NCBI RefSeq assembly: GCF_003019035.1
Contig: NZ_CP027447.1
Direction: 5' to 3' (one strand)
DNA length: 64,000 nucleotides
Source of the DNA: Escherichia coli
GTDB lineage: Bacteria; Pseudomonadota; Gammaproteobacteria; Enterobacterales; Enterobacteriaceae
Made by a program: the position numbers and the translations under genes. This document shows, piece after piece, positions 18,856 to 28,513 of the stretch (the first letter of the stretch is position 1; each line of letters opens with the position of its first letter). The notes under the pieces were generated by a model, which worked only from the letters and a program-made list of their open reading frames with translations, was not told where the DNA came from and did not search any database.

Positions 18856-20160
18856 GGGTAACGCAGGGAAAGATTACGAAAGCCCGCTCCCCGCAAGGAC
18901 TGACGCCAGATAGTTTCTGTCCATGGCTGCTTTTCGCATCTTACGTCTTAACCCTGCCTTGAATACCTTATCATTCGTCAAAATATTAATAGCGATGTGC
19001 CGTATCCCTGAAAATAATTCTGCTGCATTTCCTCTTCTTATTTTGCAGTCGTCTTCATTCATTACCACGTCCAGACGCCAGTGCAGCTTATTCTCCACGT
19101 GCCAGTGGTTTCGGATTGCTGTGGCGAACTTCTCTGCGGTTAAATCAGCAGAACTGATATAATATCTGACCGTCATTTCGGGCTCTTTCTTTTGTTCTGC
19201 TATTATTGACCGAAAGGAGACTGCCACGCATAATTTCTTCAGACCTTTCCATTCAAACGTGAAATCAATAAGTTCATCAGGGACATCGCAAACAATGTGA
19301 AGACGGATTTCTTCTCTGCCGTGACTCTTTTCACTCATTGCGTAACTGTCATGCTCTGGATTATTTAATTCTTTCAGCGGAAATTTTTCCTCGAAGGCTT
19401 TATTTAGCCGCCCCTGGTTTCCTTTTACAGCGAATAAATAATCACCTCCCTGTTTTTGTATCTTCTCTGCAATATCTTTCTGGCAACCCATCGCATCAGT
19501 TGTGATGATTTTTCCTTTAATATCCAGCATGTTAAGAAGTTCTTGGATAGCTGTAATCTCATTGGATTTCTCATCCGTCCTGATCTGTCCGATGACCAGA
19601 CTATGCATTGTTGAGAACGCACTAATGACATGAATCGCTCCCTTGCGGCGACTCTTGTCATAAGAGTGCCGGAGCGTTTTTCCATCAATTGCAATGACGC
19701 CTTTATCATCTGAAGAATGGCAGTCACGCATCCAGTTAATAAAGCACTCGTGAAATTTTGCAGGACTGATACAGGATACAACTCTGGCAATGGTATCGTG
19801 AACAGGAATACCATTTTCAAAATCACCATATTGCTTCAAAAAATCGAGATGTGTTTCCCCAAAATCCTCTATATCTTCCCAGCCTTCTGCACCAGAAATA
19901 ACGGCACAAATAGTCAACAGTAGAATATCCGACAATTTATGTTCCACTTTCCAGGCTTGTCTGTACTCGGGAATAACAGAAATATGTTCTATCAATTTTT
20001 TAAGTACCATTTTGTTCTCCTTAATTATGTAAGGAGTATTTGATCATGTATAAGCAATAAAAAACAGCTTCAGGTAATGAGGAATATCTCAATTTTTAAA
20101 CATAAAATGCGAATTATTTAGTACAAAAAAGCAGCGTTACGTGATCTTTCCCTGTGTAAT
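18856..20160 (-). mobile_element. H-repeat / ISAs1-family insertion sequence (about 1.3 kb)
   Basis: Contains the 378-aa H-repeat-associated transposase; imperfect terminal inverted repeats centred on CAGGGAAAGAT (18861-18878 versus reverse complement of 20139-20156, 15/17 identical); boundaries approximate to about 5 bp. Confidence 0.75.
18874..20010 (-). CDS. ISAs1-family (H-repeat-associated, YhhI-like) transposase
   Basis: 378-aa [53 protein letters not shown]...; near-identical to the recalled E. coli H-rpt protein family. Confidence 0.9.
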
Positions 20161-20834
20161 CCCCCAGCTAAATCATGAACTTTTTGAGCCATTTTACTTA
20201 ATTCAGGGCAGGCTCCTAAACCTAATGGATCTGTGAAGCAACACGGATTCAGCACATAACCATAAGTGTTTAGTCCACCCAATACACCCAGGGGGTCACT
20301 CACCAGATACATCCCGGTCTCCGGCTCGTAGTACCGGAACCGGTTATAGCACAGCCCTGACTCCGCATCCCGCCACTGCCCCGCATACAGCAGACCGGGG
20401 TCCGCTTCTGCGTCTCGCTCCCCGCGCGGGTCCGGGTAGTCCCTGTCTGCGCTGACGCTGAGTGCCAGCCCCCACAGGCTGGTCTGCTCCGCACGCCACA
20501 CCACGTTACCCTGACTGTTAAAGAGCATCACCGGGCGGCCTGTCAGGTCGCTTACCGCATGGCTGGTCCGCGTCACCCACTGCGGGGCCACGGACGGGTG
20601 CGGCTGCCGTACCCGGCTGAACTGCTGGCTTATCAGCTCAAAGCCGTTAAACACCAGGTACCGCACACTGTACAGTTTATCATCGCGGTATTCCCGGATT
20701 TCCGCAATAGTGTCGCCGTCCCACAGATATGTGATGCGGAGGGCTTTTTGTTTGCAGCGTTTCTCTGTCCGTCTGCCACTGGCGTCGTGGCAGTATTCCC
20801 ACTGCTCACCCCGGGCGCTGCGGTAGCCGATCAC
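20118..20834 (-). pseudogene. orphan rhs C-terminal fragment (last about 206 aa of Rhs core plus a truncated alternative tip)
   Basis: Homologous to residues about 1260-1470 of the upstream Rhs through the PxxxxDPxGL core end (DPLGL); no upstream ORF or canonical start; only about 19 native residues follow DPLGL before the reading frame runs into the IS terminal repeat. Confidence 0.7.
20217..20834. repeat. direct repeat copy 1 (rhs core 3' end, orphan copy)
   Basis: About 620 bp, high-identity copy of 21694-22311 visible in both nucleotide and protein alignment. Confidence 0.75.
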
Positions 20835-20863: not shown

Positions 20864-21253
20864 TTATTTAATCCAGTAAGCTAATCTCTCACCAATCTTC
20901 AAATTTTCTCTTTTGTAATAAAATACAGTATCAAAGTTAATGGATATTTTTTTCGCAATAACTTTGAATTTCAATTCAAATTCCGAATAAAACTCTAATA
21001 CTAACATTTCACGAGCATTGTCAGTGCAACTTGATAGCTTAATAAACTCCTCATTAAGATCGCATGACCAGTCCATAACACCGCTAATATAGCATGGCGT
21101 GTCTATTATTATTTCCAGTGTGTGATAGTAAGAAAGGTCATCACTCCCGGAAATAATCAAGCGATTATGTTCATAAAGAAAAACTGAAAAATCCAACCAA
21201 CTTTCTTTCCAATTATGGTGCTTTATATCATTAATTATGTTTTGCTCACTCAT
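20864..21253 (-). CDS. candidate cognate immunity protein for the Rhs C-terminal toxin
   Basis: 129-aa AT-rich ORF; its ATG overlaps the rhs TGA stop in a 4-bp ATGA overlap; positional analogy to rhsI genes; no family recognised from sequence. Confidence 0.6.
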   Translation of the reverse strand: MSEQNIINDIKHHNWKESWLDFSVFLYEHNRLIISGSDDLSYYHTLEIIIDTPCYISGVMDWSCDLNEEFIKLSSCTDNAREMLVLEFYSEFELKFKVIAKKISINFDTVFYYKRENLKIGERLAYWIK

Positions 21254-24200
21254 GGAATAGTTCCTGTAGGCAATGGTATATGAGTATCATTTGCAGCTCC
21301 TGGATTATAATTCGGACTTTTAGTTTTCAAATCAGATGTATGATGCCAACTGCCATCAGGAGAACCATACTCCCAACCATAGCCTTGATTAGTCGCAGGA
21401 TTTGTTCCACTTTGGCTTCTACCAATCCTATATATGGGGCCATTGGCAGAATTACTCCCTGCTGGAGCAGTAGGGTTTACATCATGAGCCCTTACTTCAT
21501 ATTTATAATTTCCGACGGTGAATTTTTCTTTAAATTTTATAGGGTAGTTATGCCCAGACAAGCCTTGCCGATGTAAAGCATAATTTAACACATCCTGCGG
21601 TGAGGTATTTTTAATTGCTTGATGCGCTTGTGCTGCTGTCATACCTTGAGAACGATTGTATTTATACCAATCATACATCACAGGACATATAGCTAATCCC
21701 AAAGGATCAACATACCCCAGCGGATTAGGCACATACCGGTAAGTCTGCTCACCCCCCAGCAACCCCAGTGGATCACTCACCAGGTACATCCCGGTTTCCG
21801 GCTCGTAATACCGGAACCGGTTATAGCACAGCCCCGATTCCGCATCCTGCCACTGCCCCGCATACAGCAGGCCGGGGTCGGCTTCCGGGTCCAGCTCCCC
21901 GCGCGGGTCCGGGTAGCCGGTGTCTGCGGGCAGGCTGAGTGCCAGCCCCCACAGGCTGGTCTGCCCCGGTCGCCAGACGGTTTTACCTTCACTGTTAAAG
22001 AGCACCAGCGGACGGCCCGTCAGGTCGCTCACCGCATGATTCGTTCGCGTCACCCACTGCGGGGCCACGGACGGATGCGGCTGCCGTACCCGGCTGAACT
22101 GCTGACTCAGCAGCTCAAAGCCGTTAAACACCAGGTGCCGTACGCTGTACAGTTTATCATCCCGGTATTCCCGCATTTCCGCAATACTGTCGCCGTCCCA
22201 CAGATACGTAAAACGGATTTTCTTCCGGTCGCAGCGTTTTTCCGTCCGCCTGCCGCTGGCGTCGTGGCGGTATTCCCACTGCTCACCCTGTGCGCTGCAA
22301 TACCCGGTCAGCTGGTCCCGGCTGTCCCACCGGAACCGCTCTGTTTCCGGGCGGTAGCCGTCACGGTGTCTGGTGCGGCTGACCATCCGGCCTGCGGCGT
22401 CATAGCTGTAGTCTGTGTTTCCGGTCTGTTTCAGCCGGTGGCCGCGCTGATACATGTCAGTATCCACGCTTATCCGGTGCCTGCCCGCCGACTGCGCCTT
22501 CAGGTAGCCACAACTGTCATAGCCATAGGACTCATCGCCTTCGCCATAGCCCAGCCCGGTGCCTGAGGCTGTCACCGCCGTGACCTGGCCGTTCCGGTCC
22601 AGCCGGTACTCCCGCCGTGTTTCCCGTCCGTAGTCTTCCCGGCTGGTGACAGCCGACATATTGCCCGCGCTGTCGTAACGGTACTCCCGCACCAGTGAGG
22701 GGAGCAGTCCGCCCCATGTGGCTTCCGCCGGGAAAAGTCCGGCGCGCTGGCTGGTAAGCTGACCGGCTGCATTCCAGCCCTGCTCACAGGCAAAACCCCG
22801 GTTACTGTGCCGGAGCACTTCACGTCCTGCCTCATCACGGCTGAACGTCAGCGTCTCATCCCCCGGCAGGATAACCTCCGTCAGTTCTCCGGCGGCGTTG
22901 TAGCGGTAGGTGGTTTTCAGCAGGGATTCACCGGGGTGTCTGTCGCGTTCATCTTCCGGTGGCAGGATACAGCGGATGACGGTGTGTTCATCGGGGTGGT
23001 GGTATTCAATGGCCCGTCGGCCCTGAGTGGTGACATTCACCCGCCCGCGTTCGTCATAGCCGGTGCGCTGTGATGTACCGTCCGGGCTGAAGATACCCGT
23101 CAGCCTGCCGGATTTGTCATAGGCATACTGCGTTTTGCCTTCCGGCGAGATGACTTCTGCCAGGCGGCCTGCGGCGTCCCGGCTGTAGAGGATAGTTTCC
23201 TCCAGGCCGTTAACCCTGGCGGTACAAAGGCCATCGGCGTCATAGCGGTAACGCCAGACCACGCCGCCCCAGTCACGCTCTTCCGTCACCCGTCCACAGT
23301 TGTCCAGAATATAACGGTATGACTCGCCCTGCGGATTGATGACTTCTGTCAGTTGCAGCGTGTCTTTATCGTAGCGGTACTGCCAGCGGTGGCCTTCACC
23401 GTCCGTTCGCGCCACCGGCAAATCGAACGGGCCGTATTCCATCGTCCAGACAACGCCGTTGCCGTCCGTCCAGGCCAGCAGGTTGCCGTGGCGGTCATAG
23501 CGAAATCCTTCCGCGCCGGTGCCAGTGCGTTCAAGGCCGCTCAGTTTATGGTGCTGCTGCCACCGTAACCGCACTGACTGACCGCCGGGGCCGCGCATCT
23601 TCACCGGCAGGTCGTGACCGCTGTATTCGGTGTGGTGTTCACGGCCCATCACGTCGGTGAGTGTTTCCGGCCGGTTGTGGTGGTCGTACTCTATGCCCAG
23701 ACGCCGTTCATCCTGGCGGAATATCCCCGACAGCAGCCCCTGCGGCGTGTACGCCAGCCGGGTCTCTTCGCCCTGTGGCGACACCAGACTTACCGGCAGG
23801 CCGCGTTCATCACACTGCTGCGTCCACATCTGCCCGGCAGGGTCGGTGATGTTGCTGAGCAGGCCGCGCTCATCATAGCAGTACTGCCACTCCGCACCGT
23901 CTGCCGCCGTGTAACGGCTTAACTGACCGTGTGCGGCGTTGTATTCAAACTTCTCCACCCGCCCGGCAGGGGAGTGGCGGGCCAGCAGGTGATGGAATTC
24001 ATCCCATTCATACATGGTGGTGCTGCCGTCCGGCGCTGCTTCCCGCAGAATATTGCCGTCAGGATCATAGTAATAACGGTGAATGCCCTTGCCGTCCGTC
24101 ACGGTGGTGCAGCCGTCACCATAGTCCAGCGTGGCGTTGTAATAGCCCTCCGCCCCGGTGACGGTCACGCACCGGCCCTGTGCATCGTAGGTGAAACGGC

Positions 24201-26103
24201 TCCACGTCTGGTCGTTATCGGACCAGCGGATGATCCGGTCCGCAGCGTCGTACTCATAAAACAGGTGGTAGTCCAGCCGCGCATCCGCTTCTGTCAGCCG
24301 CCCCCGCGCATCCTGTTCGTAGGTCGCCAGCATCTGTATGCCGTTATCCGTACGGTGAATGGCTTTCAGGTAGCCGCTGGCATGGTACGTCAGTTTAAGC
24401 CGGATCCCGTCGGTGTGACTGACACCCATGATGCGGTACTGGCTGTCGCGCTCAAACGTGATGCGGTTGCTGGCGGTGTCGCTCATCCCGCCCAGCATGT
24501 ACATCCGGTCTGCGGGGCTGTGTGCCAGACGGTCATCGCAGGTATCGTCAGTCACCGGGTGGCGCAGGCGCATTCCCGGAAAGGCGTCATAAAAGAAGCG
24601 GCTGCTCAGTGCATCACGGTCGAACAGCTCCAGGTAATCGTCGCGGCGGCGCAGAATGTACTGGGCGTGATACGGGTTAACCGCCGTATCACTGTCACCG
24701 TCGAAGGCAAATCTCAGCGTGGTTCCCTGGCTGATGATATCCACCCGGTTTCCCTGTTCACGCACCCAGGCGTATTCGCTCCAGGAGTCGCTCCAGCCCA
24801 CGCCCGTCAGACCATGCAGCGGCAGTACAGAACTGTGGAAACGGGTGAAGGAGAGGGGGAGTGTCTGGCCCAGCGTAAAGTCGGTACGTTCGTCGCAGTA
24901 TGCGCCGGTTACCGGATCGACAGGATCTGTTACCCATCTGATGACTTTATTGGCAATACTTTTTAACGACTTACCTGTTTTCCCCAGCAACGCGCCGAGC
25001 TTTGCCCCCAGCAGCTTCCCGCTTTTCCCCAGCAGGTTTCCCAGTTTGCCGAGTTTCGCCAGATTCCCCAGTTTTCCCAGCAGTCCCGCGGGCGGCAGAA
25101 GATAGCTGGCTATCGTTATTCCCCCCAGGATCATTCTCTGCCACGGCGGGAACTCCGGCTGGATATCCAGATAGGTCACCTGTTCACCGCCAATAAAGAC
25201 GTCCGGCGAACCTTCCACGATTGCCGCGCTGCACTCCAGTTTGTCCCCTTTGCGTGCGGCAGTCTGATTGTTGATAAAGACGTTGCTGCTGCCCTGGGCT
25301 ATCCTCGGTGGTTTGTTCTCCTTGTCGCAGAGCGCCGTGTCCTCACCGGCTTCCGGGAAATCCACGTCTTTTTTGATTTCGCCACGCCCGCCCACCATGG
25401 TGGCAAACTCCATTAATACCGGACCGGCGGGAAACAGAAGCGATGCGCCGGCGCTGACGCGATCCATAATACCGGCATTGCTGTCCGTCAGGGTGATAAC
25501 AGCGTTCCCCCAGGCCTTCGCCAGTGGTACTGCTTTTTCCGCTGCCGATTCAAGCAGGTCAGTGGCAATATCACCCCATGAGGGTTCCCCCTGTGGTGGA
25601 GAGGGTATTGCTTCAGTCAGGGGAGGAGGGGGAAGGGTGACGGCGGCCCTGGCAGCGGGCTTTCCGTTAATGTTTACATTTTTAGAACCAGTATTGATGG
25701 CCCCGTCCGTGTCACAAAAACTGTTTATCCATGATTCAAGCTGGTTCTGTTTCTCCTCCACATAATCACTCGCCTTATAGCTGGCATACATCAGCGCAGG
25801 CACCAGAACCAGCGCATAAGGGCCGGTGGCACAGGCGGCCATAATCAGGCAACCTTCTGCGATGGTCACTATCGCCCCCAGCACGGCCCCTGCCAGCGCC
25901 CCCAAAAAACTCTTGTGCTGAATTTCATCGCCCAGCCTGGCTGCGGGGGGGCCAGACTTTTTTGATGCCAACATCTGTGCAATGGCTTTGTCGTTGGCTG
26001 CCCGTTTCATCTGGCTGGCGACCATCGCCTGCTGTGACAGCATTCGCATTGCCAGCGTACCGCCTGCGGTCGCTCCCTGTGGCCCGCCTGGTCCTTCACT
26101 CAT
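21250..26103 (-). CDS. rhs: prePAAR/PAAR-domain Rhs-family polymorphic toxin (T6SS effector) with variable C-terminal toxin tip
   Basis: 1617-aa ORF: N-terminal AARLGDEIQH (prePAAR-like AARxxDxxxH), hydrophobic helices, PAAR-like segment (ARKGDKLECSAAIVEGSPDVFIGG), long YD/Rhs repeat region, core terminating at DPLGL, then a 147-aa low-GC tip. Confidence 0.9.
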   Translation of the reverse strand: MSEGPGGPQGATAGGTLAMRMLSQQAMVASQMKRAANDKAIAQMLASKKSGPPAARLGDEIQHKSFLGALAGAVLGAIVTIAEGCLIMAACATGPYALVLVPALMYASYKASDYVEEKQNQLESWINSFCDTDGAINTGSKNVNINGKPAARAAVTLPPPPLTEAIPSPPQGEPSWGDIATDLLESAAEKAVPLAKAWGNAVITLTDSNAGIMDRVSAGASLLFPAGPVLMEFATMVGGRGEIKKDVDFPEAGEDTALCDKENKPPRIAQGSSNVFINNQTAARKGDKLECSAAIVEGSPDVFIGGEQVTYLDIQPEFPPWQRMILGGITIASYLLPPAGLLGKLGNLAKLGKLGNLLGKSGKLLGAKLGALLGKTGKSLKSIANKVIRWVTDPVDPVTGAYCDERTDFTLGQTLPLSFTRFHSSVLPLHGLTGVGWSDSWSEYAWVREQGNRVDIISQGTTLRFAFDGDSDTAVNPYHAQYILRRRDDYLELFDRDALSSRFFYDAFPGMRLRHPVTDDTCDDRLAHSPADRMYMLGGMSDTASNRITFERDSQYRIMGVSHTDGIRLKLTYHASGYLKAIHRTDNGIQMLATYEQDARGRLTEADARLDYHLFYEYDAADRIIRWSDNDQTWSRFTYDAQGRCVTVTGAEGYYNATLDYGDGCTTVTDGKGIHRYYYDPDGNILREAAPDGSTTMYEWDEFHHLLARHSPAGRVEKFEYNAAHGQLSRYTAADGAEWQYCYDERGLLSNITDPAGQMWTQQCDERGLPVSLVSPQGEETRLAYTPQGLLSGIFRQDERRLGIEYDHHNRPETLTDVMGREHHTEYSGHDLPVKMRGPGGQSVRLRWQQHHKLSGLERTGTGAEGFRYDRHGNLLAWTDGNGVVWTMEYGPFDLPVARTDGEGHRWQYRYDKDTLQLTEVINPQGESYRYILDNCGRVTEERDWGGVVWRYRYDADGLCTARVNGLEETILYSRDAAGRLAEVISPEGKTQYAYDKSGRLTGIFSPDGTSQRTGYDERGRVNVTTQGRRAIEYHHPDEHTVIRCILPPEDERDRHPGESLLKTTYRYNAAGELTEVILPGDETLTFSRDEAGREVLRHSNRGFACEQGWNAAGQLTSQRAGLFPAEATWGGLLPSLVREYRYDSAGNMSAVTSREDYGRETRREYRLDRNGQVTAVTASGTGLGYGEGDESYGYDSCGYLKAQSAGRHRISVDTDMYQRGHRLKQTGNTDYSYDAAGRMVSRTRHRDGYRPETERFRWDSRDQLTGYCSAQGEQWEYRHDASGRRTEKRCDRKKIRFTYLWDGDSIAEMREYRDDKLYSVRHLVFNGFELLSQQFSRVRQPHPSVAPQWVTRTNHAVSDLTGRPLVLFNSEGKTVWRPGQTSLWGLALSLPADTGYPDPRGELDPEADPGLLYAGQWQDAESGLCYNRFRYYEPETGMYLVSDPLGLLGGEQTYRYVPNPLGYVDPLGLAICPVMYDWYKYNRSQGMTAAQAHQAIKNTSPQDVLNYALHRQGLSGHNYPIKFKEKFTVGNYKYEVRAHDVNPTAPAGSNSANGPIYRIGRSQSGTNPATNQGYGWEYGSPDGSWHHTSDLKTKSPNYNPGAANDTHIPLPTGTIP
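21253..21693 (-). other. Rhs C-terminal toxin domain (147 aa after DPLGL); candidate WHH/HNH-type nuclease
   Basis: Abrupt drop in GC content after the DPLGL junction; motif GSWHHTSD...NYNPGAAN...THIP near the C-terminus resembles the His-His...Asn...His arrangement of HNH/EndoVII-fold toxin domains. Confidence 0.45.
21694..22311. repeat. direct repeat copy 2 (rhs core 3' end, main gene)
   Basis: Homologous to 20217-20834; substrate for homologous recombination that would swap toxin tips. Confidence 0.75.
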
Positions 26104-26122: not shown

Positions 26123-26584
26123 TCAGCGCGGCTGGTCCTTTTGGATGTCATTCTCCGGTGGCAACGGGGTGAAGCTCTTTATCACCTCCAGCAGCATCGT
26201 CTTTTGACTGTTCTTCAGGGATAAGGAGGTGCTGAAAGTGAAGGTCAGCAGCGTATCTCCACGCCGCTGGAATACGGCTATCTGGCTAATCCGCCCCTGA
26301 TTCCCTTCATCTTCCGGACCGTTCCAGGAATAATCCAGCAGCCAGGCCGGGGCCTCTGCCAGAGTGATTTCCCGGCAGGCATGTTCGGTGTACCCATCAA
26401 GTTTGCCCTGGTACAGCGCCAGCGTTTCCTGGTACAGCTCTGGTGTCAGGGTTCCCTGTGGAACGGCTTCGCGGGTAATGACCAGGTTGATGCCACTGTT
26501 ATCTGTGGACACCAGGACCTGCATTGACTGATCCTGCCATTGAGACGGCAGTTGAATGTGGCCTTCATTAAAAGTGAACTGCAT
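26123..26584 (-). CDS. DUF1795 / Eag-family effector-associated chaperone
   Basis: 153-aa ORF between vgrG and the prePAAR-Rhs gene, tightly spaced; size and position typical of EagR-type chaperones. Confidence 0.75.
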   Translation of the reverse strand: MQFTFNEGHIQLPSQWQDQSMQVLVSTDNSGINLVITREAVPQGTLTPELYQETLALYQGKLDGYTEHACREITLAEAPAWLLDYSWNGPEDEGNQGRISQIAVFQRRGDTLLTFTFSTSLSLKNSQKTMLLEVIKSFTPLPPENDIQKDQPR

Positions 26585-26611: not shown

Positions 26612-28513
26612 TCAGTTGATGAAAACAGAACCGCCCACGATGGTGATGCCATCCTTCGACAGCCTGATTACCGTCGATTCCCCGACCTGTAGCTGTATGC
26701 CATCCGGCGTCAGCGCAATTTTGCTTTCCTCCACGGCCAGCAAAATTTCCTTAATCGCCGTATAAGCCTGTATACCGTCGCCTTCGCCACCATTGTTTAC
26801 AGCGTCAACATGCACCGAACCGGCAATCGTGCCTCTGTCCTGAAAGACATCCTCAGATAAAGACCCTTTCAGTACTCCGGTGATCTTGTGGCCTTTTTCC
26901 ACCGTAAGAAGGCGGTTACCTTCCTGGATCGTGACCGTCTGGTCATTTTTTACGGTTTCGCGGTGATCGTGTTTTACGGTGGTGGTACGGTCGTTGAGCA
27001 CTTCGGTATCCATGTTCTTCTGCGCGTGGATGTAGACCTGTTCTCTCCCTGTCGCATCATCAAACTTCAGCTCATTAAATCCGCTGCCCATGTACGTTTT
27101 GGAGCGGATGGTCATCTGCGTCTTTGTTCCCGGCAGGCTGCCGGGGGTGCGGTTTTCCTGGTGGTAGGTGCGCCCCATAATGATCGGCTGGTCCGGATCG
27201 CCGTTGAGGAAGTCTACAATCACTTCCTGACCCACACGCGGTATCGCCAGGTGGCCAAAACCGGTGCCTGCCCACGCCTGTGCCACACGGATCCAGCACG
27301 AACTGTCTTGGTCTGCCGGGTTATAACGGTCCCAGTTGAACTTCACCCGCACGCGACCATGTTCGTCGCAGAAGATTTCCTCGCCTGCCGGTCCTGTCAC
27401 GACAGCGCTCTGCGGGCCGTCGACCAGCGGTTTCAGCAACGGCTGTGGTCGCCATGTTCTGTCTGCCGGGATCACCGCAAAATGGTTCTCCAGCGCCGTC
27501 CCCGCTCCCTGCCGTCCTGGCACCGCCTGTGGCTGTTCGCCGTGCAGTTCACTTGCCACCACCTGCCATTCCCGGTTCAGGTTCGCCTGCGGATGCCCCG
27601 TCAGCACAATTCGTCGTCCCGGCCATATCTCCGGCGAGCGACTCATTCCCCGCGCGGTTTCTGCATTGTTTCGCCAGCCGTCCATCTGCCAGCGGGCAAA
27701 GTTCTGCCCGTGGGCACCCTTGAAACGTCCGGGGTAGTCATACACTTCATACTGCGTGCGCTGGTAGTCCTGGTGCTGGCCTTCCTGTTCAAAACGTCCG
27801 GCCCAGCCGGGGCGTTTAAAGGTGTAGTCTTTGGTCACCACGGAAGAAGGGCGGATTTGTGCGCTGTAGCGGAACTGGCTGATGCAGAGGGTGCTCACCT
27901 CGGTACGGGTGTTCGGGTTCCATGGGATTTCAAAAGATTCGGGCAGATGGCGGACTGTGTCGCACAGCACCAGGCTCTGGTCGGTACTTTTGTAAGCATG
28001 CTCCTCATAAAAGAAGATGCCTTCCTCCGCCGCCATCCGGCACAGGAAATCGTAATCAGTCTCACCGTACTGGACACAAAACTCACGGGAAGGATGCGGC
28101 TCGCTGAACAGCGGACTCCATTCGGTCACCCCGTTTTCCTGCAACATCGTGCCGAGGATGCTTTTGATGTCCTCGTTCTGGAAGATACGGAAGTTCTGGC
28201 GCAGACCGGCACGCCACAGCGGCGGGTGCACCTTCATGCTGTACAGCATCTGGTTTTTGTCGTTCTCCCCCAGTTCAAACCAGGTCACCACGCCTTTCAC
28301 CCGGCGCTGTACTTCATCGCCCTGCCATATCGTCAGGTAGGCCATTTTGTCCAGCACCTGCGCAAATTCAAGGGAGAGAAACTGCTGGCTGACCAGGGAG
28401 AGATCGAGGGAAAAGAGCGAAGAGAGTGACTGGTTCAGATGAAAGGAAACCACCGCAAAAGCATCCGGCGGCAGGCCGTCCACTTCCAGTGTGAAACGTA
28501 ATCCGGTTGACAT
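26612..28513 (-). CDS. vgrG: type VI secretion spike protein VgrG
   Basis: 633-aa ORF starting MSTGLRFTLEVDGLPPDAF... with gp27/gp5-like regions and a C-terminal beta-helix-like segment; canonical VgrG N-terminus. Confidence 0.9.
   Translation of the reverse strand: MSTGLRFTLEVDGLPPDAFAVVSFHLNQSLSSLFSLDLSLVSQQFLSLEFAQVLDKMAYLTIWQGDEVQRRVKGVVTWFELGENDKNQMLYSMKVHPPLWRAGLRQNFRIFQNEDIKSILGTMLQENGVTEWSPLFSEPHPSREFCVQYGETDYDFLCRMAAEEGIFFYEEHAYKSTDQSLVLCDTVRHLPESFEIPWNPNTRTEVSTLCISQFRYSAQIRPSSVVTKDYTFKRPGWAGRFEQEGQHQDYQRTQYEVYDYPGRFKGAHGQNFARWQMDGWRNNAETARGMSRSPEIWPGRRIVLTGHPQANLNREWQVVASELHGEQPQAVPGRQGAGTALENHFAVIPADRTWRPQPLLKPLVDGPQSAVVTGPAGEEIFCDEHGRVRVKFNWDRYNPADQDSSCWIRVAQAWAGTGFGHLAIPRVGQEVIVDFLNGDPDQPIIMGRTYHQENRTPGSLPGTKTQMTIRSKTYMGSGFNELKFDDATGREQVYIHAQKNMDTEVLNDRTTTVKHDHRETVKNDQTVTIQEGNRLLTVEKGHKITGVLKGSLSEDVFQDRGTIAGSVHVDAVNNGGEGDGIQAYTAIKEILLAVEESKIALTPDGIQLQVGESTVIRLSKDGITIVGGSVFIN

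Follow-up and report, generated by a model that had tools for sequence, protein, structure and literature searches.

A candidate RhsI-type immunity gene for an Ntox30 toxin tip of Escherichia coli

The Pfam Imm families described by Zhang et al. (2012; PMC3482391) were recognized as conserved genes located 3′ of polymorphic toxin domains. One of the toxin domains in the same catalogue, Ntox30, is defined by the motifs RxH, R and THIP and was predicted to be a metal-independent, two-histidine endoRNase (PMC3482391), but no immunity protein is entered in its row of the table. No assay of Ntox30 activity was found in the literature consulted around this prediction, and a 2023 review still describes the family as uncharacterised. 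According to PMC9635880, the work of Ma et al. (2017; Environ Microbiol 19:345) on Rhs-CT/CTI pairs of Escherichia coli also includes the Ntox30 toxin domain; in two secondary accounts of that work (PMC6730261 and PMC9635880), the experiments mentioned are those on CT1, CT3 and CT5 with CTI5. Here we analyze a 64,000-nucleotide (nt) stretch of E. coli DNA (NCBI RefSeq assembly GCF_003019035.1, contig NZ_CP027447.1; hereafter, the window), in which a small open reading frame (ORF) encoding 129 amino acids (aa) directly follows an rhs gene whose product ends in an Ntox30 domain. The ORF very probably encodes the cognate, cytoplasmic RhsI-type immunity protein for the Ntox30 tip of the adjacent prePAAR-Rhs effector, and binding to the tip and rescue from it are predicted. 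A sequence-only reading of the window had proposed that the ORF is the immunity gene of the Rhs toxin, and this proposal is supported by the co-inheritance of the two genes, by the identity of the tip and by all of the tests that could be made computationally.

The locus follows the logic of the classical RhsI/CdiI systems and of the E. coli Rhs-CT/CTI pairs of Ma et al. (2017), with vgrG, a DUF1795 chaperone gene, PAAR-Rhs-CT, a small immunity gene and orphan rhs fragments downstream. The ORF and the tip very probably form an ordinary Rhs toxin–immunity pair, of the kind that this study, as represented in later papers, catalogued in E. coli. In sequence, the ORF product is unrelated to other RhsI/CdiI families. 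It is comparable to the Imm families of Zhang et al. in functional class and in the logic of its discovery, but neither the ORF product nor 26 diverse members of its family match any of them. Two described proteins bear on its predicted fold: PIM7 (PDB 8OWU; bioRxiv 10.1101/2021.10.19.465003), which confers immunity to PT7, an LXG-linked DNase toxin from Bacillus cereus, and 5V77 of Neisseria gonorrhoeae, which is considered together with the "DSL-Imm" (double-sheet-layer) immunity fold (PMC9424270). For 5V77 itself, the literature consulted yielded no biochemical data.

Linkage of the gene to Ntox30 tips

The candidate immunity gene occupies positions 20864..21253 on the minus strand, stop codon included, and its 129-aa product starts with MSEQNIINDIKHHNWKESWLDFSVFLYEH (also given as MSEQNIINDIKHHNWKESW). 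The ATG (21253-21251) shares bases with the TGA (21252-21250) of the 1617-aa Rhs ORF (21250..26103), thereby forming an ATGA overlap at 21250..21253 on the minus strand, where the plus strand reads "tcat". The gene, joined to the toxin tip by this overlap, thus follows it immediately on the same strand, as an RhsI gene does. An AGGA that resembles a Shine–Dalgarno sequence (21262..21265, minus strand) is located 8 nt 5′ of the ATG, within the 3′ end of rhs, and may serve the immunity gene. The toxin tip itself comprises residues 1471-1617 of the Rhs protein (147 residues; 21253..21693, minus strand) and matches Pfam Ntox30 (PF15532; E 1.6e-11). It bears the Ntox30 motifs RxH (as VRAH), R (as RIGR) and THIP, which are kept in the alignment of tip sequences (A4), and its AlphaFold model has a predicted local distance difference test (pLDDT) score of 90.2.

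The GC content of the ORF (0.32-0.37) is close to that of the tip, taken as the last ~450 nt of rhs (0.37-0.44), and far below that of the Rhs core (0.61-0.69). The ORF product is acidic (isoelectric point, pI, 5.0) and the tip is basic (pI 9.2). A cytoplasmic location is predicted for the ORF product, as for RhsI proteins, by a hydropathy heuristic, which detected neither a hydrophobic segment nor an N-terminal hydrophobic stretch (maximum of 0.84 in a 19-residue Kyte–Doolittle window). The sequence-only reading had already given the ORF boundaries, the 129-aa length and the 4-bp overlap of ATG with the rhs TGA, and had described the ORF as AT-rich like the tip, its product as free of a signal peptide or transmembrane segment, and the toxin as a cytoplasmic nuclease. 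The boundaries, length and overlap were confirmed, with the minus strand as an added detail; the base composition and the hydropathy profile agreed with the description; and the nuclease assignment gained support from the match to Ntox30, a predicted cytoplasm-acting nuclease (PMC3482391).

A weak sigma-70-like site (TTGTCT-16-TAAAAT; 21561..21534, minus strand) is present within the tip coding region, ~280 nt 5′ of the immunity ATG, and could allow toxin-independent expression of the immunity gene. A promoter and terminator scan detected seven sigma-70-like sites in the region against 3.5 ± 1.8 expected, a number that is barely enriched and uninformative.

The sequence-only reading had called for an examination of whether the ORF and the tip occur together in other genomes. 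Among 5426 complete E. coli genomes, the DNA of the ORF and the DNA of the tip were each found in 120, in one copy per genome, and the joined block of 1 kb was likewise found in 120. The ORF and the 1-kb block are 100% identical to the sequences of many complete E. coli chromosomes, and the identity of the tip is at least 99% across the 120 genomes. The ORF product corresponds to WP_022645326.1 (100% identity by tblastn), a hypothetical protein at the matching position in E. coli sequence type (ST) 648.

Outside this set, 59 further loci were collected by exact-protein look-ups, a scan of representative genomes (6 loci) and a scan of metagenomes (40 loci); the last of these used a tighter alignment (A3), since the alignment of 26 diverse members (A2) was too variable for locus scanning. 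A word-indexed search with the tip yielded 10 clusters only, and tip sequences were drawn from the loci instead. Six-frame translations of the loci were searched with custom hidden Markov models (HMMs) of the immunity family and the tip. When lineages were defined as clusters of 90% identity, 28 had enough upstream DNA to be assessed and 4 more could not be judged. In 11 of the 28 assessable lineages, whose identity to the query ranged from 100% to ~31%, an Ntox30-like domain was located directly upstream on the same strand; this toxin domain precedes homologues in Citrobacter, Pectobacterium and several metagenomic lineages. The ORF therefore co-occurs with an Ntox30 tip elsewhere and, as is characteristic of RhsI genes, moves with it as one AT-rich variable module.

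The spacing between the two genes is short. A gap of 6-49 nt separates the end of the Ntox30-like domain from the match to the immunity family in E. coli, Citrobacter sedlakii (L006), Pectobacterium (L010) and loci L030, L012, L013, L054/55 and L059; in L012, where the carrier is an orphan Rhs fragment, the precomputed Pfam call is also Ntox30. This gap widens to 293 nt in L018/19 because of a C-terminal extension of the toxin, whose stop codon lies 22 nt before the immunity ATG. This extension (L018, 3..851; L019, 2..709), located between the THIP motif and the immunity gene, has ~90 aa and is rich in Gly, Asn and Asp. Five lineages (E. coli, C. sedlakii, Pectobacterium, L030 and L059, the last of which is distant) retain the ATGA overlap, and the other linked lineages have a spacer of 5-24 nt between toxin and immunity genes. 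Some carriers are full Rhs proteins, others are orphan Rhs fragments, and those of L013 and L018 are of unknown type. Decayed tips were observed next to an intact immunity gene in L002/3 (premature stop) and L031 (frameshift). Orphan modules usually end in this way.

Synonymous divergence (dS) from C. sedlakii is 0.98 for the tip and 0.96 for the immunity gene, with ratios of nonsynonymous to synonymous divergence (dN/dS) of 0.08-0.16, and dN is somewhat greater for the immunity gene than for the tip in matching genome pairs. The equal dS of the two genes, together with the pattern of dN, fits a single module that is co-inherited and co-evolving. Toxins of other types were not seen directly next to any member of the family, the neighbours in the unlinked loci having been judged by eye and not by a Pfam search.

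Conservation and predicted fold of the protein family

Conservation and purifying selection mark the ORF as a real gene. Homologues formed 67 clusters at E<=1e-3, every one of them full-length and from a member of Enterobacterales (Kluyvera, Citrobacter, Yersinia, Lonsdalea, Kosakonia, Pectobacterium, Brenneria and Escherichia fergusonii among them), and a profile search extended the immunity family to 292 representative clusters, 88 of which were found at E<=1e-10. Codon comparison of the ORF with its homologues gave dN/dS values of 0.09-0.16, with dS of ~1 or saturated. The database names encountered were all "hypothetical" or "uncharacterized". Alignment of the 26 diverse members (22-78% identity) showed that H44, E47 and Y113 are invariant and that D39 and Y42 are nearly so. 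The most conserved features of the family are the loop D39-x2-Y-Y-H44-x2-E47 (DxxYYHxxE) and the C-terminal tail RENLxxGERLAxW.

The immunity gene has two E. coli alleles (20864..21253 of the window and 7165..7554 of L060), which differ at 4 nucleotides, all of which are nonsynonymous (H29Q, I48L, C54Y and S74G). Positive selection was considered on the basis of this 4:0 ratio, which is not significant alone. In three longer family members, the family domain is C-terminal: P0124 and P0132 (~295 aa) have an extra N-terminal domain that appears helical, and P0195 (306 aa) has an N-terminal P-loop domain (GTHCSGKST).

The absence of a recognisable family, noted from the sequence alone, was borne out by database searches. 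The ORF product had no match in Pfam even at E<=10 and none in NCBIfam, and a phmmer search of PDB sequences returned nothing below E 0.66. The profile search against Pfam Imm families that the sequence-only reading had recommended was run with the ORF product and the 26 members, none of which matched Pfam, and the profile built from these members (A2) had no match among PDB sequences.

The AlphaFold model of the ORF product, built with 18 homologues (mean pLDDT 81.6), has about nine strands after an N-terminal helix. The predicted fold resembles those of PIM7 and 5V77, with the N-terminal helix, two β-sheet layers and a significant superposition that characterize the PIM7/DSL-Imm group. The chains of PIM7 and 5V77 were absent at E<=10 from both the phmmer and the A2-profile searches of the PDB, so that homology to them was not detected in sequence; identity to 5V77 is 13%, with no sequence-level relation, and the toxin partners differ. 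The likeness to PIM7 and 5V77 in the model is thus one of common fold and not demonstrated family membership, and the fold as predicted is that of known polymorphic-toxin immunity proteins. The C-terminal tail has a pLDDT of 47-55, and one may speculate that such low values would fit a segment that becomes ordered only on binding.

Orphan relatives and alternative roles

Homologues of the ORF were also found inside arrays of orphan immunity genes (Imm45, SUKH, CdiI and Imm26) in Pectobacterium parmentieri and in related Pectobacterium and Brenneria loci. Short antisense ORFs with matches to the SymE_toxin family of Pfam are interspersed in the array of P. parmentieri (L002/L003, a 14-kb locus). 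E. fergusonii (L004/L005, 6600..9215) carries a paralogue of 54% identity, which has 140 aa as called and 129 aa when read from the second ATG. It is flanked by small unannotated ORFs and an ISAs1 transposase gene. Some E. coli also have this paralogue (P0040 and P0050). Since this paralogue has no toxin and lies between small ORFs and ISAs1, it has the look of an orphan-immunity islet.

Several findings weigh against the assignment of the ORF as an immunity gene. No toxin is adjacent in 17 of the 28 assessable lineages, which hold orphan copies or stand-alone genes, and most of the distant members of the family are toxin-less. Stand-alone members are situated among housekeeping genes in Budvicia, in the actinobacterium Embleya (L011) and on low-GC metagenomic contigs, and so reach into distant phyla. 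The invariance of H44, E47 and Y113, with the near-invariance of D39 and Y42, represents a polar conservation above that usually shown by a pure binder. Neither Pfam nor NCBIfam provided a match to an immunity family (Imm1-74, SUKH, CdiI and others) for the ORF product, the confidence of its structural model is only moderate (pLDDT 81.6 from 18 sequences), and in the one comparable case that has been solved PIM7 failed to block mutant PT7 in vitro (bioRxiv 10.1101/2021.10.19.465003). The wider family could have another role, or an additional one.

These points lend themselves to an explanation in which the family is a broadly distributed protective or enzymatic protein, for example one that would reverse or repair damage from Ntox30-type toxins, or a housekeeping protein that has been recruited next to the toxin, so that protection would be exerted by catalysis or at the target and not by sequestration. 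The stand-alone lineages, including those from Actinobacteria and low-GC contigs, would be expected under this explanation, and it also draws on the invariant H44, E47 and Y113, the nearly invariant D39 and Y42, and the fusions to an extra N-terminal domain (P0124 and P0132) or a P-loop domain (P0195). We nevertheless regard it as unlikely, given that the predicted fold matches non-enzymatic immunity proteins, that no enzyme family was matched by sequence or by fold, and that some of the homologues sit in classical orphan-immunity arrays. Toxin-less orphan immunity genes are common in polymorphic toxin systems.

Somewhat less probable again is a role unrelated to the toxin, in which the ORF would be a passenger of the AT-rich cassette, for example a regulator or an accessory delivery factor, whose position mimics that of an immunity gene. 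The name "hypothetical protein" given to the product in all databases is compatible with such a role, but the linkage to Ntox30-like tips extends across very divergent lineages and three delivery contexts (full Rhs, orphan Rhs and non-Rhs carriers), the junction is conserved, the fold is of immunity type, and no DNA-binding or secretion-related domain was detected in the ORF product. The ORF might finally be a chance open frame in AT-rich DNA that encodes no protein, for which its small size and lack of annotation are the only arguments. We consider this excluded, because mononucleotide shuffling of the 390 nt produced an equally long open frame only once in 2000 trials, and because dN/dS of 0.09-0.16 at saturated dS, 67 homologue clusters (292 by profile) and the AlphaFold model all speak for a real protein.

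The Rhs locus, proposed mechanism and significance

The gene order of the locus is vgrG, the DcrB/Eag chaperone gene, the prePAAR-rhs gene with its Ntox30 tip and the immunity ORF. The rhs gene (21250..26103, minus strand) encodes a full-length class I prePAAR-Rhs effector of 1617 aa, with YD repeats, an RHS core, prePAAR_I (PF25799; E 1e-5) and a PAAR domain that was detected at E 4.7e-10, below the curated cut-off. Near the N-terminus (25800..26103, minus strand; residues 54-100), the prePAAR motif AARLGDEIQH is followed by hydrophobic helices that resemble glycine zippers; judged from these sequence features, the protein appears to belong to the effector class that depends on Eag chaperones. 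The core ends in DPLG-x18-DPLGL (residues 1444-1470; 21694..21774, minus strand), the presumed self-cleavage site, where the GC-rich core meets the AT-rich tip. Rhs_assc_core (TIGR03696) spans residues 1409-1470, and the drop in GC content coincides with the DPLGL at the end of the core. Upstream of rhs are the gene for the DcrB/DUF1795 (Eag-type) chaperone (26123..26584, minus strand; Pfam DcrB, E 1.7e-27; "DcrB-related protein" in RefSeq) and the gene for the VgrG spike (26612..28513, minus strand; TIGR03361, E 8.6e-188). The N-terminal prePAAR and PAAR regions, together with the upstream DcrB and vgrG genes, place the locus among the class I prePAAR Rhs/Eag loci of type VI secretion systems (T6SSs).

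Directly 3′ of the immunity gene is an orphan rhs fragment (20118..20834, minus strand; Rhs_assc_core, E 1e-19), which is annotated as a partial RHS and has only 32 codons past DPLGL. The Rhs element ends with an ISAs1-family (H-repeat) transposase gene (18874..20010, minus strand), identified by ORF call and annotation. In E. coli ST648 (NZ_CP008697), the order is cusS, vgrG, DcrB-related, RHS, the WP_022645326.1 ORF, partial RHS, ISAs1, nfrB and nfrA. At the position of the orphan fragment, E. coli strain 1500 (L060, 4038..7129) has several orphan rhs fragments in a longer array, and a small ORF follows each of them, such as that for WP_001103752.1 (177 aa).

With the ORF taken as the cognate immunity gene of the Ntox30 tip, we propose the following mechanism. 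By what is known of Rhs proteins, the tip would be released by self-cleavage at DPLGL inside the Rhs shell. It would be fired into neighbouring cells by the T6SS on the VgrG spike, with the PAAR domain and with the help of the Eag chaperone, and would attack nucleic acid in the cytoplasm of the recipient as a nuclease. The immunity protein, which is acidic, would bind the basic tip 1:1 in the producing cell and its siblings and would block it, probably by covering the active site, by analogy with PIM7 on PT7. Contacts may be made by the RENLxxGERLAxW tail and the DxxYYHxxE loop. The ATGA overlap and the AGGA may couple the synthesis of the two proteins, such that immunity protein would be made whenever toxin is made.

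What is new here is modest: an immunity family without a database model, its predicted PIM7/DSL-Imm fold and orphan copies that are surprisingly widespread. The known picture of Rhs systems is unchanged. For the biology of E. coli, the analysis gives a likely function to a "hypothetical protein" gene that is present in ~2% of the complete genomes. The ORF would fill the empty immunity slot of Ntox30 in the catalogue of Zhang et al. (2012), and its product would place the partner of this toxin in the recently recognised PIM7/DSL-Imm fold. The family may help to annotate T6SS effector–immunity pairs better, as well as the orphan-immunity genes of gut metagenomes, and the locus offers a defined toxin–antidote pair with which to find what Ntox30 cleaves.
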